Shown here piece by piece: positions 17,790 through 26,927 of a stretch of 32,000 bases of DNA (its first letter is position 1; every line of letters starts with the position of its first letter). Where the stretch lies: assembly GCF_000981785.2 (NCBI RefSeq), contig NZ_CP011304.1, forward strand, positions 2,820,001-2,852,000, given 5' to 3'. The stretch comes from Microcystis aeruginosa NIES-2549. GTDB taxonomy: Bacteria; Cyanobacteriota; Cyanobacteriia; Cyanobacteriales; Microcystaceae. Both the position numbers and the translations under genes were made by a program. The notes below the pieces were generated by a model, which was not told where the DNA came from, did no database searches, and was given only the letters and a program-made list of their open reading frames with translations.

Positions 17790-18329
17790 TCAGATGAATG
17801 AGGTAAGTAATGGTGACTGGGAAGTGTCAACAAAAGGGGAATTACAATAGCAACCATGTGTGAACCAGCCATGAATATCTTTAAGGGTAATTGCGCTTAA
17901 AGCACCACAAACGGCTTGCCTGAGTTCTGAATAGTTGCGAGGTTCCAATGTTTTCAAAATTTGCTTAATTTTAGACCAACAATTTTCAAGAGGAGAAAAA
18001 TCAGGAGAATAAGGTGGAAGAAAAATTAAATGAGCACCAGCGGTTTCAATCAATGGACGAATATATTCCTCTTGGTGAATTTTAGCATTATCCATAATTA
18101 CGTAAGCACCATCCCAAAGGAGTGGGACTAAAACGCTGGCAATAAATGCCTCAAATTGAATCCCCTTGGTGGAACCTACAATCTGAACTAAAGCTAATAA
18201 TCCTTTCAATGCTATAGCGGCAATGTAAAAACCAGCGATCAGCAAAATTTGGTTTTGCAAGTGAAAAGAAATAGTGTACAATGACGAGAGACTAAAACTC
18301 AAAATTATCTCAATTAAGGAATAATTCAA
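17790..18329 (-). pseudogene. IS630-family transposase, C-terminal (DDE) fragment only
   Basis: ...VIMDNAKIHQEEYIRPLIETAGAHLIFLPPYSPDFSPLENCWSKIK... is the IS630/Tc1-like catalytic C-terminus. The HTH/N-terminal half is absent. The first ~30 codons of the ORF look non-homologous. Confidence 0.75.
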
Positions 18330-18867
18330 TGTTATCAGAAAATGAAAAAATAATTAAATAGTTATGTCAAGAGTTAGGGCAATGTCTTTATGAACAATCC
18401 CAAGTTGAGAAATTTAATAACTCGGCAGAGATAGAGGAGACTGTTAGAGATTTAATGATTCAGTATGTCAACCCAGAAATAGGTATTTTTTTGTCAAAAC
18501 AAGCACAGGAGAAACAGCAGGTCGGACAAGAAAAGTAAAAAGTATTTTGGGTGAATTACCAATTACATAAAAACAAGCGAAAAAATTAGAAATAAAGCCT
18601 CGGACTCACATGATTCCAATGTTAGAGAAGAACTGTTTGCTATTAAGTGGCAATGAATCATTAGAGAAATCGGCGCAGAAAATCAAATCATTGACAGGAA
18701 TTGCTGTTCCTCACAGTACCCAACAACGCCTCGTACATCGCTATCATTTTGAAGAATTATCGTTGGCAAAAGATGTCGGGTTATCGGCAGAAAAAATTGT
18801 CCTATTAGTGCAAGATAATGCTGGGGGCATAGAAGTCAAAAACTTGAAGTTACCGATGGAATCATGA
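18330..18867 (+). pseudogene. ISKra4-like transposase N-terminal region, broken by several stops
   Basis: Frame-hopping translation gives MLSENEKIIK*, ..EIEETVRDLMIQYVNPEIGIFLSKQAQEKQQVGQEK* and MIPMLEKNCLLLSGNESLEKSAQKIKSLTGIAVPHSTQQRLVHR. This resembles ISKra4-type transposase N-termini as I remember them. Confidence 0.55.
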
Positions 18868-19122: not shown

Positions 19123-19254
19123 GAAGAAGGTGAATTAGCGGCAAAATTAGCCTCTATTCCTCGTTTATTGGCATTAGGATTAAACTTTGAACAGATAGCA
19201 CAAGCTTTAGAATTAGAGATCGAACAGGTTAGACAAGCGACTCAAGGGGAATAG
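19123..19254 (+). pseudogene. C-terminal tail fragment resembling Rpn/DUF4351-type (PD-(D/E)xK transposase-like) proteins
   Basis: EEGELAAKLASIPRLLALGLNFEQIAQALELEIEQVRQATQGE* with no upstream coding body. The family call is from memory of the ..RLL..GL..EQIA.AL.L..E.V tail. Confidence 0.4.
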
Positions 19255-19460
19255 GAAAAGTTCCAAGCGATCGCATTTTAATAATGGTTTCCCAATCTCG
19301 ATCGCTATCAATCAACAGTAAATTATTCTCCAAACTTTGATAAATTAATATAATTTCTGGGGTCTATCTATTTAGCGATCGAGGTAGCTACATTAGGACT
19401 ATTGGGGCGCAAAGAACTTGCACCCTCTGGATATCACGGTAATTCCCCTGACCGTGGCCC

Positions 19461-20804
19461 CTAGCGGAACATTGCCCGCAGGGAACTGGAGACTTGATTG
19501 GCTGCCCGTGCGGCCACCAATCCCGAAAGGGCAGCAACCACCACTGTGGCAAGGCAGGTTAGCTGGGCTGCTCCCGGTCCACCCACCCCCAGCACCATCG
19601 CCATGGCGGTCAGAGGTAGGCGATAGCCGCCAGCAATACCGGCCGCTGCCCCCGCCGCACCCGCCAGATCCCCCGAAATCTCAAAGGTGGTTGCGAACAC
19701 CCGGCCAGTGAGGTCGCCGATCGCCAGAAAAGGGACAAACACGCCGCCACAGCCACCGGCCAAAACCGCAGCGGTGGTAGCCGCGGCCCGGAGCAGAGCT
19801 ACCGCCAACAGGTGGTAAGGAGTTGTTTCAGTGTTTTCGGCCCAGAGGATAGCGCCCACCCCCGGTCCAAAAGCCGCTGCTGGAGTCGCCACCTGTCCGA
19901 TCACGATCGCCAAGAATAGCATCACCAGGCCACCGATGAGGAGACGAGTGGCGGGCCTGTCCCGCAAGCCTCTGGCCCAGTAGATCGCCTCACCGGTGAG
20001 GGCTGTAATCGTGCCAGCGATCACTCCGATCAACAAAGTGGCAGCCACCGCATCCCAGAAGTCAGTCGGGGCAATCTGCGGCACCACCAGCCGGATCAGT
20101 TGCAGCTTAAAGGCAGCGTTGACCCCCCATCCCACCAGTCCCCCGGCTAACATCGCCGCCACTCGCTCCGGGGTGATCGGAACCTGACGTCGCTGACTCA
20201 ACTCAAACATAAAAAAGCTGCCCACCAGAGGGATTCCCATCAGAGCCGAAACACTTGCCGCACCGCCGCCGATGGCCAGGGGCCGCACCAGTTGACCCAG
20301 GGCTGGATTGGTGCTGCCTAACCAGGTTCCCGTCGCCACGCCAATATGAGCCGCCGGTGATTCTGTTCCCATGGGCGCCCCCAGTCCAACAGTGGAGAGG
20401 ATGGCCATGGCCCGCAACGGTGCTAGATTCCAGGGGAAGCGCTCTTCGGCACCGGATGCGTTAACCACGTCACCGGTCAGATCGGCGCGAGCAATGTCAT
20501 GGGGGAAGGAGTACCAGGCCATGAGAGAACCCCAGCGGCCAGAGGCAGTCGCCCCGCGGGGAGCTAAGGTCTGCACAGGTTGGCCCCTACCCAGTCCAAA
20601 CAGGACTAGCACTGCTAAAGTAACGCCCACCAGAGGCAGCAGCAGTAGCCAGACGTTGCCTAGGTTAGAGGCAATTCTGAGGGTTTGCTTAATTGCCTCA
20701 GTCAGCAGTACCGCGGCCAGAGAACCGATCAAACCGCCGAGCAGACCAGCAACGGCCCATGGGCCTACCCTGGTTAAGAGAAGTTGTAGTTTGTTATTTA
20801 GCAT
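19461..20804 (-). CDS. ClC-family (voltage-gated chloride channel / EriC-like) membrane protein, no CBS domains
   Basis: 447 aa polytopic protein. GTESP aligns to the GREGP gating-Glu motif and GGVFVPFLAIG aligns to GxFxP. GC content is strikingly high relative to the flanks. Confidence 0.82.
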   Translation of the reverse strand: MLNNKLQLLLTRVGPWAVAGLLGGLIGSLAAVLLTEAIKQTLRIASNLGNVWLLLLPLVGVTLAVLVLFGLGRGQPVQTLAPRGATASGRWGSLMAWYSFPHDIARADLTGDVVNASGAEERFPWNLAPLRAMAILSTVGLGAPMGTESPAAHIGVATGTWLGSTNPALGQLVRPLAIGGGAASVSALMGIPLVGSFFMFELSQRRQVPITPERVAAMLAGGLVGWGVNAAFKLQLIRLVVPQIAPTDFWDAVAATLLIGVIAGTITALTGEAIYWARGLRDRPATRLLIGGLVMLFLAIVIGQVATPAAAFGPGVGAILWAENTETTPYHLLAVALLRAAATTAAVLAGGCGGVFVPFLAIGDLTGRVFATTFEISGDLAGAAGAAAGIAGGYRLPLTAMAMVLGVGGPGAAQLTCLATVVVAALSGLVAARAANQVSSSLRAMFR

Positions 20805-20952
20805 CGCGCAAGGAAAGTTAAGCTTTTATTGTTCTGATAGCAAGTCCATTTGAGTAGTCAAGCAAAACACCCTGAAAGTCTTTACTATATTATCTGTAAC
20901 TACCTTCTGCCTATTGCCTATCCCAACCAAGAAATTAATTTTACACGACTAC

Positions 20953-22398
20953 TTAATAGTGACGTGGAGTATAAACCCATTGCTTGCTTTTACCCTGCTC
21001 AATAAGGCGAGTTTTACTCGACCCGATCAAAATTATGGTTCGCATATCCCCATCGTTAATAGTCATATCCTCTAGGAATTTTACCGTCACCGTTTCCCCT
21101 TTTCGTCCTAAATTACGCGCTAATACCACGGGAGTTTGCGGCGATCGCCATTGTAATAAAATCTCTTTTGCCTTCTCTAATTGCCAAGTGCGCTCTTGAG
21201 ACACAGGATTATAAAATGCGATCGCTAAATCTGCTCGGGCCGCTAACTCAATGCGCTGAGAAATCACCTGCCAAGATTTGAGAATATCCGATAGGGAAAT
21301 CGCACAAAAATCATGGCCTAAAGGTGCGCCAACCCTGGCGGCCGCCGCCTGCATGGCCGAAATCCCCGGACAGACCTGAATGGCCACCTGCTGCCATGCC
21401 GGTTTTGCTTTTTTTTCTAATACCTCAAACACGGCCGCAGCCATGGCATAAATTCCCGGATCTCCAGAGGAAACTAAGACAACCGATCGCCCCTTAGCCG
21501 CTAAATCTAGGGCCATTTCTGCTCGATCGAGTTCCACCCGATTATCCGATTCATGGCGGACAATTTCTGGTTTTCTCAGGGATTCTACCAAATCCAAATA
21601 AGTTTTATAACCCACCCAATCCGTGGCTTTTTCCAACACTTCTCGAACTTCTGGCGACATCCAATTTAGCGCACCCGGTCCGGTTCCGACTATGGCTAAT
21701 TTACCTTGACTTTCCTGGGCCAAATCCCCCGGTAGTAAACCAGATTTTTCCTTAATTTGCTGGCTTTGCTCCCAGAGATAAACTAAACAGTCACTGCTAG
21801 GTTTTGCCAAGTTTAAGTTATTTTTATCGATAATCTCAATGCTCAGTTTTGCTGCTGATGAAATTGGTAAATTACTATTTTTTAACCAGTCCGCTTCACC
21901 GATTAATTTTACTTTTTCACCCGCCAATAAATCGGACAGAAACTTCTTAGCATCATCGGGATTAACTAACTGATAACCGGGTGGTGGCGATAATAAGGTC
22001 GTTTTAAATCTAATATCACCAGTGGTGGTAATTGCGGGGGAAATTTGCAAAACCGAGGCAATTTGACGAGCGAGATCATTAACCCCTTGTAAACCCCCCA
22101 ACAAAGGCACTACGGCGCTGCCATCTTCGGCGATTGCTAATACAGGTGGTTCTTGCCATTTATTAATTAATAAAGGTGCTAAAGTACGAATTAAAATACC
22201 CGCCGCACAAATGCCAATAATTGGCGTTCCTGTCTGGAAAAATTCTCGCACCGTTTCGCCAAAATTAGTATAGGTAAAATCAGCCGAATGGGTACGATCT
22301 ATTAACCCATAAACCACTGCTTCCGGTAAGGCCATTTGCACTTGACGAGCAACGGTGATACTGGTTTCTCCTAAAATCAGAATAGCTGGAGGTTTCAT
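20953..22398 (-). CDS. cobJ: Fused CbiG-like / precorrin-3B C17-methyltransferase (CobJ/CbiH) cobalamin biosynthesis protein
   Basis: 481 aa. The C-terminal half has tetrapyrrole methylase motifs (LAIVGTGPG...SSGDPGIYAMA). The N-terminal ~230 aa are CbiG-like. Confidence 0.82.
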   Translation of the reverse strand: MKPPAILILGETSITVARQVQMALPEAVVYGLIDRTHSADFTYTNFGETVREFFQTGTPIIGICAAGILIRTLAPLLINKWQEPPVLAIAEDGSAVVPLLGGLQGVNDLARQIASVLQISPAITTTGDIRFKTTLLSPPPGYQLVNPDDAKKFLSDLLAGEKVKLIGEADWLKNSNLPISSAAKLSIEIIDKNNLNLAKPSSDCLVYLWEQSQQIKEKSGLLPGDLAQESQGKLAIVGTGPGALNWMSPEVREVLEKATDWVGYKTYLDLVESLRKPEIVRHESDNRVELDRAEMALDLAAKGRSVVLVSSGDPGIYAMAAAVFEVLEKKAKPAWQQVAIQVCPGISAMQAAAARVGAPLGHDFCAISLSDILKSWQVISQRIELAARADLAIAFYNPVSQERTWQLEKAKEILLQWRSPQTPVVLARNLGRKGETVTVKFLEDMTINDGDMRTIILIGSSKTRLIEQGKSKQWVYTPRHY

Positions 22399-24196: not shown

Positions 24197-24362
24197 TTGT
24201 TCGGCAATCTTTGAAAAGATACCAGTTTCTCAGTCATCAATGAATCATAATTTACAGATTTTGGCTAATTTAATCCTTGTTTTTGCCGTTTTTGAACCAT
24301 CAAAAATTAATTATGCAAGAGGTTTAATATAATGTTAATTGAGCTTAGAAGGAGATAAATCG

Positions 24363-24794
24363 ATGACGGCATCCTATGAGCAAGACTTTGGACTTTGGGC
24401 CGAACAAATGGCCGATTTATTAGCCTCCGGTCGGTTTTCCGAGTTAGATATTGAGAATTTAGTCGAAGAGGTGCGGGATTTGTCGAAACGGGAGCGCGAT
24501 CGCTTACTCGCTAGTCTCAGATTAATTTTGCATCATTTATTAAGGTGGGACTATCAACCTCAACGGCGATCCAGGGGTTGGTTGGGAACTATTCAGCGAG
24601 AAAGAGCTAATATTAGGCTTTATTTGGACGATAGCCCCAGTTTCAAGCGATATTTAACCGATGAAAGCCTATTTAAACTCTATGCTGTTGCTTGTTGCGA
24701 TGCCTTTAGAGAGACGGGATTAGAGTTTCCCCCCATTTGTCCCTACGGTATTGAGGATATTTTAAATCGTTCTCTTCATTTGTCGGAACGATAG
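24363..24794 (+). CDS. DUF29 family protein
   Basis: MTASYEQDFGLWAEQMADLL..GRFSELDIENLVEEV.DLSKRERDRL.S.L..ILHHLL.W.YQP is the characteristic DUF29 N-terminus. The ATG at 24363 follows aaggag (24349-24354). The TTG at 24339 in the ORF track is less likely. Confidence 0.85.
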   Translation: MTASYEQDFGLWAEQMADLLASGRFSELDIENLVEEVRDLSKRERDRLLASLRLILHHLLRWDYQPQRRSRGWLGTIQRERANIRLYLDDSPSFKRYLTDESLFKLYAVACCDAFRETGLEFPPICPYGIEDILNRSLHLSER

Positions 24795-25478: not shown

Positions 25479-26021
25479 ATGCCTAGTTATACTCCTCCTA
25501 CCAGTTATACTGGTACTAAAAATAGCGATAGAATCTACGGATCTGCTCAAAATGATTATATTTTTGGGGCTGGTGGGGATGATAAATTATATGGCGGTCT
25601 TGGAAATGATACTCTTGCGGGAGGTGAAGGAAATGACTATCTTGATGGAGGCGATGGTGACGATATTTTGCAAGGATCGGACACTCTTAATTATTACTAC
25701 GGCATCCCCGGTCTAACTGTCCCAGAATATGATACTTTAGTTGGAGGTGCGGGTCGTGATACATTTGTAATTGGGAATAATCGAGGTAATCTTAATATGG
25801 GACCAGGTTATGCAGTAATAGCTGATTTTACCTCTTTTGTTGATCGCATTCAAGTTAAACAAAGTGGAGTATCTGCAGTAACTGGTATTACTCTTAAAAA
25901 ACAAAATATGGTTGGAGGAGGTGCTTCAGATACACTTATTTATAATGGTACAGATTTGATAGCAGTTGTTCAAGATAATAGTAGTTTGGAATTAAATAGT
26001 AGTTATTTTAACTTTGTTTAA
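25479..26021 (+). CDS. Hemolysin-type (RTX-like) calcium-binding repeat protein
   Basis: 180 aa. Consecutive GGxGxD nonapeptides ([35 protein letters not shown], later GGAGRDTF). No N-terminal signal peptide. Confidence 0.75.
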
Positions 26022-26038
26022 TGCAACTATCAGATTTT

Positions 26039-26155
26039 GTAGGGTGCGTTAGGTGGCCACCAATTCTGATCAAAAACCAAAATCAATAATCCGCGCTCCA
26101 CGCAGCAAATTTATTATTAAATTGGTGCATTATGCTTTCGCACTTCACACCCTAA
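26039..26155 (+). repeat. MITE-like element, copy 1 (complete, with terminal inverted repeats)
   Basis: tgtagggtg...caccctaa termini. Internal long-range pairing caccaatt/aattggtg. About 80% identical by eye to 26832-26927. Confidence 0.7.
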
Positions 26156-26259
26156 GAGTGGTAAGAAGTTGAAGGGTGATCGTTCTTGTCGGTGGGGTGG
26201 AGTGCGATCTCTGTCATCGAATAAGATATAATTGGGAAAGTCCAAATAATTAAAGCATT

Positions 26260-26813: not shown

Positions 26814-26831
26814 GTGTGAGCGCTTAATCTG

Positions 26832-26927
26832 GTAGGGTTTGTGTTTGCGGCCACCAATTCTGTTAAAAAATCAAAATCAATAATCTGCACCCCACGCACC
26901 AACTTTGTCATTAAATTGGTGCGTTAC
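26832..26927 (+). repeat. MITE-like element, copy 2 (right end truncated or diverged)
   Basis: gtagggtttgtgtttgcggccaccaattctgttaaaaaatcaaaatcaataatctgcaccccacgcaccaactttgtcattaaattggtgcgttac. Same orientation as copy 1. Confidence 0.7.

Follow-up and report, generated by a model that had tools for sequence, protein, structure and literature searches.

In CLC-ec1, that is, the ClcA protein of Escherichia coli, mutation of either the internal glutamate or the central tyrosine weakens or abolishes the coupling of anion to proton movement, and the channel-type CLCs CLC-0, CLC-1 and CLC-K carry valine at the position of that internal glutamate. CLC-ec1 itself is an exchanger of two Cl- for one H+, with structures available both for it (PDB 1OTS) and for the Salmonella protein (1KPL). 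Considered here is a gene for a distant relative of these proteins, described as slr0617-type with reference to its Synechocystis PCC 6803 orthologue. It lies on the minus strand within 32,000 nucleotides (nt) of Microcystis aeruginosa NIES-2549 (contig NZ_CP011304.1, positions 2,820,001 to 2,852,000), the whole of which stretch is referred to as the window and supplies the position numbers that are used below. The gene forms a GC-rich interval in host DNA that is otherwise AT-rich, and a preliminary description had taken this to represent a recent horizontal acquisition, or instead an allelic replacement, with its 5′ crossover found inside of the gene.

For slr0617, which also goes by ‘chloride channel protein’, functional data were not found in the searchable literature, the sole mention being as an ‘unknown protein’ in a LexA RNA sequencing table, with reads per kilobase per million of ~85-90 and a level ~4-5-fold lower in a lexA mutant (PMC4759255). 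Nor was characterization of a cyanobacterial CLC found in a review of photosynthetic-membrane transporters. As to genome context, low synteny is the norm in Microcystis, and a 20% GC-deviation criterion flags ~11% of Microcystis genes (Humbert et al. 2013, PMC3741299).

The reading preferred here, at a probability of roughly 0.68, is that of a gene from a high-GC lineage which has been exchanged among distant cyanobacteria, has long been resident in Microcystis, and is still decaying toward host composition. The family probably would have entered cyanobacteria from high-GC bacteria, or would share a pool with them (nearest outgroups are Actinomycetota, Acidobacteriota, and proteobacteria), and then would have passed repeatedly between distant cyanobacterial lineages, sometimes in the company of an adjacent MscS gene. 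Over half of the high GC would be due to the encoding of a polytopic membrane protein that is rich in Ala, Gly, Leu, Val, Pro, and Arg, with the remainder consisting of synonymous codons inherited from the high-GC source lineage and not yet worn to host composition. Within Microcystis the gene would be older than the radiation of the sampled species and would be drifting toward host composition, all while being shuffled between contexts via Microcystis genome rearrangements. The whole of the GC-rich interval is one open reading frame (ORF), which to judge by its sequence would be a single intact and functional gene:

19461..20804, minus strand: coding sequence (CDS) of a 447-residue slr0617-type CLC-family membrane protein, as based on the ORF list, Pfam, orthologues, and AlphaFold2 (AF2)/Foldseek.

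By eye, the GC content of 19395-20772 had been estimated at above 60%. Computed, it is 62.3%, versus 42.0% for the remainder of the window. Same-size windows elsewhere in the stretch have a mean of 42.0%, a standard deviation (SD) of 3.7%, and a maximum of 48.3%, placing the interval more than 5 SD above them. A 200-nt sliding window goes from ~0.37 to 0.62-0.68 at ~19400 and then drops back at ~20770. By codon position, first to third, CDS GC is 67/54/64%, with 61.8% for the CDS as a whole, and GC content at third positions (GC3) accordingly is 0.64, versus 0.38 ± 0.08 (maximum 0.50) among 20 host ORFs in the window. The sliding-window and GC3 profiles, which the preliminary description had proposed as checks, are consistent with its island.

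Such numbers could be viewed, from a different perspective, as involving no foreign signal at all but instead solely what results when a hydrophobic membrane protein rich in Ala and Gly is encoded. The protein is 17% Ala, 15% Leu, 13% Gly, and 9% Val, and amino-acid content alone lifts expected GC from 42% to 53.5%, that is, it accounts for ~58% of the excess. To separate this effect from codon choice, the protein was re-encoded with host codon usage in 2000 simulations. The GC expected under host codons is 53.5% (SD 0.84, maximum 56.2%), but the 61.8% observed is ~10 SD higher, and GC3 is 0.64 rather than an expected 0.44. Furthermore, a gene for another membrane protein, the MscS found 660 nt from the CLC gene in Microcystis locus L007, has a GC3 of 0.32. 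An explanation from amino acids alone therefore is scarcely credible. The remaining excess is a matter of codon choice that is unusual for the host, i.e., a codon-level composition which is foreign beyond the amino-acid effect, as the preliminary description had supposed.

A foreign composition is not the same thing as a recent arrival, however. The CLC gene was found in 11 other Microcystis genomes, these being the GTDB species representatives used for comparison, with 94-96% identity to their orthologues, and a patchy or strain-specific presence within the genus therefore was not borne out. Synonymous divergence (dS) of the CLC gene within Microcystis is 0.11-0.21, equal to or slightly higher than the 0.07-0.15 of flanking host genes, and the ratio of nonsynonymous to synonymous divergence (dN/dS) is ~0.17. 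The window’s flanks are 94-95% identical to Microcystis contigs. This is a long-resident gene under purifying selection rather than a recent arrival. When third-position changes within Microcystis are polarized using a Pseudanabaena outgroup, 78 are GC-to-AT versus 49 AT-to-GC, implying an equilibrium GC3 of 0.47 (all changes) or 0.43 (singletons). As these lie near the host-codon expectation of 0.44, the composition of the gene is off equilibrium and drifting toward that of its host.

Recent acquisition or allelic replacement, at the level of strain or genus and with a 5′ crossover at about codon 11, nonetheless has some observations to its credit. One is the sharp GC drop at ~20772, beyond which the codons are AT-rich, just as the preliminary description had stated. 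Two stretches are relevant:

20772..20804, minus strand: first 11 codons (MLNNKLQLLLT), 30% GC, the family-wide AT-rich N-terminus.
20805..20890, minus strand: AT-rich, 86-nt leader which accompanies the gene in ‘type-1’ Microcystis alleles, as delimited by blastn block ends.

An AT-rich start, with 27-48% GC over the first 11 codons, is seen as well in 20 homologues outside of Microcystis (Pseudanabaena, Crocosphaera, Leptolyngbyaceae, Chroococcidiopsidaceae, and others), and the N-terminal peptide, MxNxKLxPLLT, is conserved in the family alignment. In L001-L006, L009, L012, and L054, blastn blocks end at 20882-20894 despite differing upstream contexts. Because the AT-rich start is family-wide, and because the shared block reaches ~20890, the step in GC at 20772 belongs to the gene itself, with no crossover at codon 11.

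Another observation that could favor a recent event is that there are two 5′ allele types. The second, found in L007 and L008, possesses a different leader which is homologous to that of Pseudanabaena L010, and the first ~180 nt of these two alleles display an identity to the window of 0.86-0.89, versus 0.94-0.98 further in. This hints mildly at recombination between alleles within the gene, separate from the GC step, but the two allele types are homologous from the ATG onward and not from codon 11. Transposase debris along with an 88-nt repeat are found beside the 3′ edge as well (both are described below). Against these stand the gene’s carriage by 11 other Microcystis genomes with ordinary divergence, the family-wide nature of its AT-rich first codons, and the co-divergence of the L007 gene pair with that of Synechocystis (also below). 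A recent event accordingly is very improbable, and both it and the proposed crossover, as initially suggested, are set aside.

The interval had also been noted to lack exact copies of the host’s highly iterated palindrome (HIP1, GCGATCGC), and indeed there are none, versus 12 elsewhere in the window. As a mark of foreignness, this absence is uninformative because the expectation for 1.38 kb is just 0.54 sites, and in addition 10 of the 11 other Microcystis alleles carry one. What the window has in its place is the following:

20017..20024, no strand assigned: one-mismatch HIP1, reading GTGATCGC on the coding strand, at CDS nucleotide 781.

An exact site is found at this same CDS nucleotide in those ten alleles, with the window, L002, and the Pseudanabaena outgroup all reading the one-mismatch form. 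The window’s lack of HIP1 thus is a one-base, strain-level difference, the site having been gained inside of the CDS in other alleles.

Returning to the preferred reading, evidence for exchange comes from beyond Microcystis. The protein is 87% identical to that of a Pseudanabaena metagenome-assembled genome, 83% to that of Synechococcus J7-Johnson, 81% over its full length to Synechocystis PCC 6803 slr0617, and 70-76% to those of Stanieria, Rippkaea, Crocosphaera, Leptolyngbya, Cyanobium, and others, with proteins of Actinomycetota, Acidobacteriota, and some proteobacteria at 50-65%. In Microcystis, Crocosphaera, Pseudanabaena, Leptolyngbyaceae, and Chroococcidiopsidaceae, the gene is ~59-63% GC (GC3 0.56-0.65), versus host flanks of 37-50%. 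The Phormidesmis gene is 66% GC, slr0617 is 56.3%, and that of Synechococcus J7, at 59%, is below its 63% flanks. In the Cyanobium clade alone is the gene host-like, at 68-74% GC (GC3 0.75-0.9). In Egbenema sp. FJBBOT/2019 (L058, 10001-11331) the CLC frame stops early, leaving a 1047-nt ORF with the tblastn match continuing beyond, which may represent a frameshifted pseudogene or instead a sequencing error.

Pseudanabaena is among the most distant of cyanobacterial lineages, yet its copy differs from that of the window by a dS of just 0.39 (86.7% nucleotide identity). Under full saturation, as seen in a synonymous-shuffle control, the proportion of synonymous differences (pS) is 0.76 ± 0.02. 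All cross-order CLC pairs have a pS of 0.30-0.56, below saturation, with dS of 0.39-0.6 where the neighboring MscS gene is saturated; when the two genes are compared across the same pairs of genera, saturation is 89-98% for MscS versus 52-73% for the ~60%-GC CLC copies. At the level of amino acids, Crocosphaera and Leptolyngbya JSC-1 share 80% identity for CLC versus 39% for MscS. Given the normal synonymous rate that is seen within Microcystis, low cross-order dS therefore implies shared recent ancestry rather than constraint. A neighbor-joining (NJ) protein tree groups Rippkaea plus Crocosphaera with Leptolyngbya JSC-1 plus L. ohadii (bootstrap 99), contrary to the species tree, and a 5′ leader and 3′ untranslated region (UTR) are common to Microcystis L007/L008 and Pseudanabaena. 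Comparison of sequences, that is, clearly points to a family that has been repeatedly exchanged horizontally among distant cyanobacteria.

The preliminary description had called for a homologue search and phylogeny by which to name a donor clade. Exchange is what these reveal, but the donor was not identified because support for the NJ backbone is too low. It had also held that orthologues of like composition, at the same locus, and with a congruent tree would speak against its proposal. A like composition is in fact shared by many cyanobacteria; the locus differs, however, and the tree is incongruent.

The main rival to the preferred reading is a force, perhaps weak, that favors GC. Here the gene would be an old cyanobacterial one, with GC-rich synonymous sites maintained against the AT-biased mutation of the host, whether by selection (on translation, the stability of mRNA, or the kinetics of membrane insertion) or by GC-biased gene conversion tied to frequent recombination. 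Such a force may be acting, and there is a floor to GC3, of ~0.56-0.65 in hosts ranging from 37% to 55% GC, even though dS among copies reaches 1.0-1.5. Microcystis copies, with GC3 of 0.62-0.65, furthermore do not fall below the value for Pseudanabaena (0.59). On the other hand, dS of the CLC gene within Microcystis is at least that of neighboring genes, which means no synonymous constraint, and copies do take on or fall below host values: Those of Cyanobium are host-like (GC3 0.75-0.9), that of Synechococcus J7 is below its host, and that of Synechocystis is host-like at 0.535. In addition, transfers are needed anyway, both for the discordance between CLC and MscS histories and for supported clades that conflict with the species tree. 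Maintenance of GC is judged to be unlikely as the principal explanation.

Much of what can be said for that rival weighs also against the reading preferred here. The excess of GC-to-AT polymorphisms is likewise predicted by a mutation-selection balance favoring GC, or by a balance involving biased gene conversion. Microcystis L007 and Synechocystis possess CLC/MscS pairs which have co-diverged (dS of 1.19 for CLC versus 1.32 for MscS) while retaining opposite compositions: In each, an AT-rich MscS (GC3 0.32-0.33) accompanies a GC-rich CLC (0.62 and 0.535). Given the estimated substitution bias, neutral decay over that interval calls for an ancestral CLC with a GC3 of ~0.95, a possible value though one that stretches the model; Cyanobium and actinobacterial copies have a GC3 of 0.88-0.93. 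The NJ backbone, as noted, is poorly supported, and NG86 (Nei-Gojobori) distances are rough when near saturation. A vehicle of transfer was not found, with no phage or viral contigs carrying the CLC gene, and the protein’s transport function and its link with MscS are read from sequence and neighborhood only.

As candidate vehicles, phages, viruses, and plasmids all were considered, and the sole copy so found is on a 1.2-Mb, non-mobilizable Kovacikia megaplasmid. The Microcystis block that is shared across unrelated contexts runs from ~19404-19448 to ~20882-20894, with ends varying by strain (3′ end at 19404, 19420, or 19447; 5′ end at 20799-20894). A mobile cassette is not borne out, as no common terminal repeat was seen (there was no dedicated search for attC sites or terminal inverted repeats) and block ends are ragged. 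Contexts do differ among strains, but because low synteny is normal for the genus (PMC3741299), and because of those ragged ends, the block is not called a cassette.

Of 79 loci, 24 have an MscS-family gene adjoining CLC, as do Synechocystis and Rippkaea. This neighbor encodes a large mechanosensitive channel (560-690 residues; PF00924 and PF21082) and is found in one of two arrangements, either upstream on the same strand or downstream and convergent. The convergent arrangement is common to Synechocystis slr0617 and Microcystis L007/L008. The window itself has no MscS gene. Those found elsewhere are as follows:

L007/L008 12001-13752, minus strand: MscS gene beside CLC.
L021 8231-9922, plus strand: MscS gene beside CLC.
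L075 11428-13170, minus strand: MscS gene beside CLC.
L080 9463-11157, minus strand: MscS gene beside CLC.
L083 6163-7854, plus strand: MscS gene beside CLC.
About 18 Cyanobium-clade loci: MscS genes beside CLC.

The Synechocystis PCC 6803 MscS gene (L080 9463-11157) is an AT-rich anomaly, with 38% GC and a GC3 of 0.33 versus 0.51-0.57 in neighbors. Its being AT-rich, and 77% identical to the Microcystis MscS, suggests a low-GC lineage as the source from which Synechocystis received the pair. Between Rippkaea PCC 8801 (L083 6136-9365) and Crocosphaera XPORK-15E (L021 8204-11365), only MscS and CLC can be aligned, at 89.7% and 91.6% DNA identity, with flanks not alignable and both genes GC-elevated relative to hosts of 39-41% GC. 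The MscS-CLC pair, that is, sometimes moves or persists as a unit. A DUF29 gene is found between CLC and MscS in L007/L008 (11492-11961; NIES-4325 and M. wesenbergii), whereas in the window it is at 24339-24794 on the plus strand, 3.5 kb to the other side of CLC, a placement that illustrates local rearrangement around the CLC gene.

That the protein is indeed a CLC is supported by several comparisons. Pfam PF00654 (Voltage_CLC) matches residues 117-425 with 99.5 bits (cut-off 24.8), placing it in the superfamily. The NCBIfam equivalog cut-offs are not reached, either for ClcA (31.9 bits versus 350) or for ClcB (38.3 versus 482). Searched against PDB sequences, the family profile has a single relative, 1KPL (E = 1e-7). 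An AF2 model of moderate confidence (predicted local distance difference test, pLDDT, 62.8; predicted template modeling score, pTM, 0.62), in which residues 70-125 are unreliable, has as its top Foldseek matches in the PDB only CLC-ec1 or StCLC (TM 0.63-0.72, probability 1.00), from which a CLC fold is predicted.

Alignment with E. coli ClcA by hhalign has a probability of 93.5%. The gating glutamate, E148 of GTESP, aligns with ClcA E148 and does not vary among 118 cyanobacterial and 11 outgroup sequences. Invariant as well is the GxFxP motif (G354-V-F-V-P358), which aligns with ClcA GIFAP, so both motifs stand as initially described. ClcA E202 aligns with E201. The internal, proton-transferring E203 is replaced, however, by L202, with Leu at this position in 117 of 118 cyanobacterial sequences and 11 of 11 from outgroups. 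The central Tyr, as the preliminary description had found, is absent, though it is the C-terminal tail which provides the equivalent position rather than the PLTAMAMVLGVGGPG region that had been named: In the tail, G-L-x-x-A-R-x-A-N-Q-L-S-S-S-L-R, neither Tyr nor any other aromatic is conserved, with equivalence to Y445 being by extrapolation, outside of the confident hhalign region. For the loop bearing ClcA S107, candidates are A-S-G-A-E-E (116-121; Ser in 78/118, Ala in 37/118) or instead the invariant R-A-D-L-T-G-D (106-112), with profile alignments beginning only at residue 125 and AF2 pLDDT below 50 there. That earlier assessment of a divergent, atypical CLC is upheld by the Leu at the internal Glu, the lack of a conserved central Tyr, and scores below the ClcA and ClcB cut-offs.

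Five motifs are invariant across both cyanobacteria and outgroups: DVVxxxGxEERFPW, GLGAPMGTE(S/A)PAAH, FxxELxxRR, GGCGGVFVPFL, and GGYRLPxTA. The slr0617-type proteins therefore constitute, on the basis of these motifs, a distinct, cross-phylum CLC subfamily. The protein presumably would serve as a dimeric anion pathway that is gated by the conserved external Glu. Because there is Leu at the internal Glu position and the central Tyr is absent, an uncoupled or only weakly coupled, channel-like anion conductance might be expected, and the recurrent MscS neighbor suggests a role alongside MscS in ion or osmotic homeostasis. A bolder proposal would have CLC actively keeping its GC-rich sites in the face of AT-biased mutation in low-GC cyanobacteria (through selection on mRNA or translation, or through GC-biased gene conversion that is driven by frequent recombination between lineages), forming with MscS a widely exchanged, two-gene ‘ion release’ module, and employing a non-canonical permeation pathway (no internal Glu, no central Tyr, an invariant GxEERFPW loop), such that its substrate or coupling may be unlike that of any characterized CLC. 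Taken as a whole this is rather doubtful.

At its ends the gene has additional features. The type-1 leader holds TTGACT-16 nt-TATCAG plus a TATAGT box, a putative promoter, and a promoter-like match lies at 20913-20884. Riboswitches (such as one for fluoride ahead of the CLC gene) and other RNA elements were sought by an Rfam E-value scan of 19200-21100, in which the sole match was a chance one to a snoRNA inside of the CDS. Beyond the stop codon, and antisense to the gene, are these:

19404..19460, minus strand: 57-nt 3′ UTR with two hairpins, marking the 3′ end of the conserved block.
20371..20853, plus strand: antisense ORF of 160 residues, spurious, with no Pfam match, open in 40% of synonymous resamplings, and with 1-3 stops in distant homologues.
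19418..19711, plus strand: antisense ORF of 97 residues, spurious, with stops in most Microcystis alleles and no Pfam match.

The 3′ UTR hairpins are CACGGT..ACCGTG, at 19435-19456, and GGGTGCAA-GTTCT-TTGCGCCC, at 19405-19425, the latter having been noted in the preliminary description. This UTR is conserved in L001, L003, L005, and L054, and partly so in Pseudanabaena L010. The 3′ hairpin, though real, was rejected as either an attC-like site or an intrinsic terminator, with a predicted fold of -28.2 kcal/mol not significant versus shuffled sequence (z = -1.6) and a terminator scan making no call. The antisense ORFs likewise were rejected as genes, lacking Pfam matches and being broken in most alleles (97 residues) or in distant homologues (160 residues). 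Long antisense ORFs had been predicted to be spurious products of high-GC coding, and though both exist as ORFs, that spuriousness is borne out by their stops, by the resampling, and by the absence of Pfam matches.

To either side of the gene within the window are the following:

19320..19407, no strand assigned: 88-nt short repeat abutting the 3′ edge of the CLC block, 96.6% identical to L012 54-141 (Microcystis BLCC-F210), there in an unrelated position.
17790..18329, minus strand: truncated DDE_3 (IS630-type) transposase fragment downstream of CLC (Pfam PF13358, E = 1.6e-22, partial).
20953..22398, minus strand: upstream host gene, a CbiG_N plus tetrapyrrole methylase fusion of cobalamin synthesis (by Pfam), with a host-like GC3 of 0.39.

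The 88-nt element probably is a short repeat of the dispersed kind and would mark the breakpoint of a rearrangement. Beside the transposase fragment is a very AT-rich stretch (18200-18500, 28-30% GC), and an ORF at 18610-18867 has no Pfam match; together these look like insertion-sequence debris. Only in L001 and L054 is synteny between the CbiG_N fusion gene and the CLC gene retained. Inside this CbiG/CobJ-like gene is a local GC bump, of 54-56% at 21200-21500, with HIP1 sites (21141, 21218) at or just before its edge. Further off, 26028-26157 and 26825-26927 each include ~100-125 nt that are 74-88% identical to several places in L001, L009, and L054, and look like a dispersed family of repeats similar to miniature inverted-repeat transposable elements. 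At 25479-26021, on the plus strand, is a gene for an RTX calcium-binding repeat protein that, with a GC3 of 0.17, is the window’s opposite compositional outlier.

Viewed in terms of composition, the island is an ordinary case, a foreign-derived gene whose decay to host values is incomplete, of a kind which GC-deviation screens of Microcystis already flag. It nevertheless supplies cautions: More than half of a GC signal can stem from the amino acids encoded, an abrupt change in GC where a gene begins can reflect an intrinsically AT-rich N-terminus and not necessarily a recombination junction, and ‘island-like’ does not equal ‘recent’. The more valuable by-product is an uncharacterized and very conserved family, with 70-87% identity across cyanobacterial orders and 50-65% to Actinomycetota/Acidobacteriota, which is without two of the residues that define Cl-/H+ coupling in ClcA and which is repeatedly found beside a large MscS gene. 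As slr0617 and its MscS neighbor are present in the genetically tractable Synechocystis 6803, a putative anion or osmotic function is directly testable.

How, then, does this locus compare with what has been described? Like compositionally atypical and putatively horizontally derived genes of Microcystis (PMC3741299), the CLC gene deviates in GC, indeed far beyond the 20% criterion, and is situated in a low-synteny, repeat-rich genome. Unlike those genes, it is neither strain-specific nor recent but instead is common to the sampled species and under purifying selection. With Synechocystis slr0617 it is identical in all subfamily motifs, but there a GC3 of 0.535 matches the host and no compositional island is seen.

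In comparison with ClcA, the predicted fold is the same over the full length, CBS domains are absent from both, and the gating Glu (GTESP versus GREGP), GxFxP (GVFVP versus GIFAP), RxPLT motif, and E202 (as E201) all are kept, though with an identity of only ~19-26%. Unlike in ClcA, an invariant Leu replaces the internal Glu, a conserved Tyr is lacking where Y445 would be, and in place of a clear counterpart to GSGIPE (Ser107) there is instead the invariant D-V-V-x-x-x-G-x-E-E-R-F-P-W. Relative to the channel-type CLCs, the external Glu is similarly retained along with a non-protonatable residue (here Leu) at the internal position, which suggests uncoupled anion conduction. Those channels are eukaryotic, however, with CBS domains as well as a conserved central Tyr and Ser, and the likeness is at the level of the general CLC fold.

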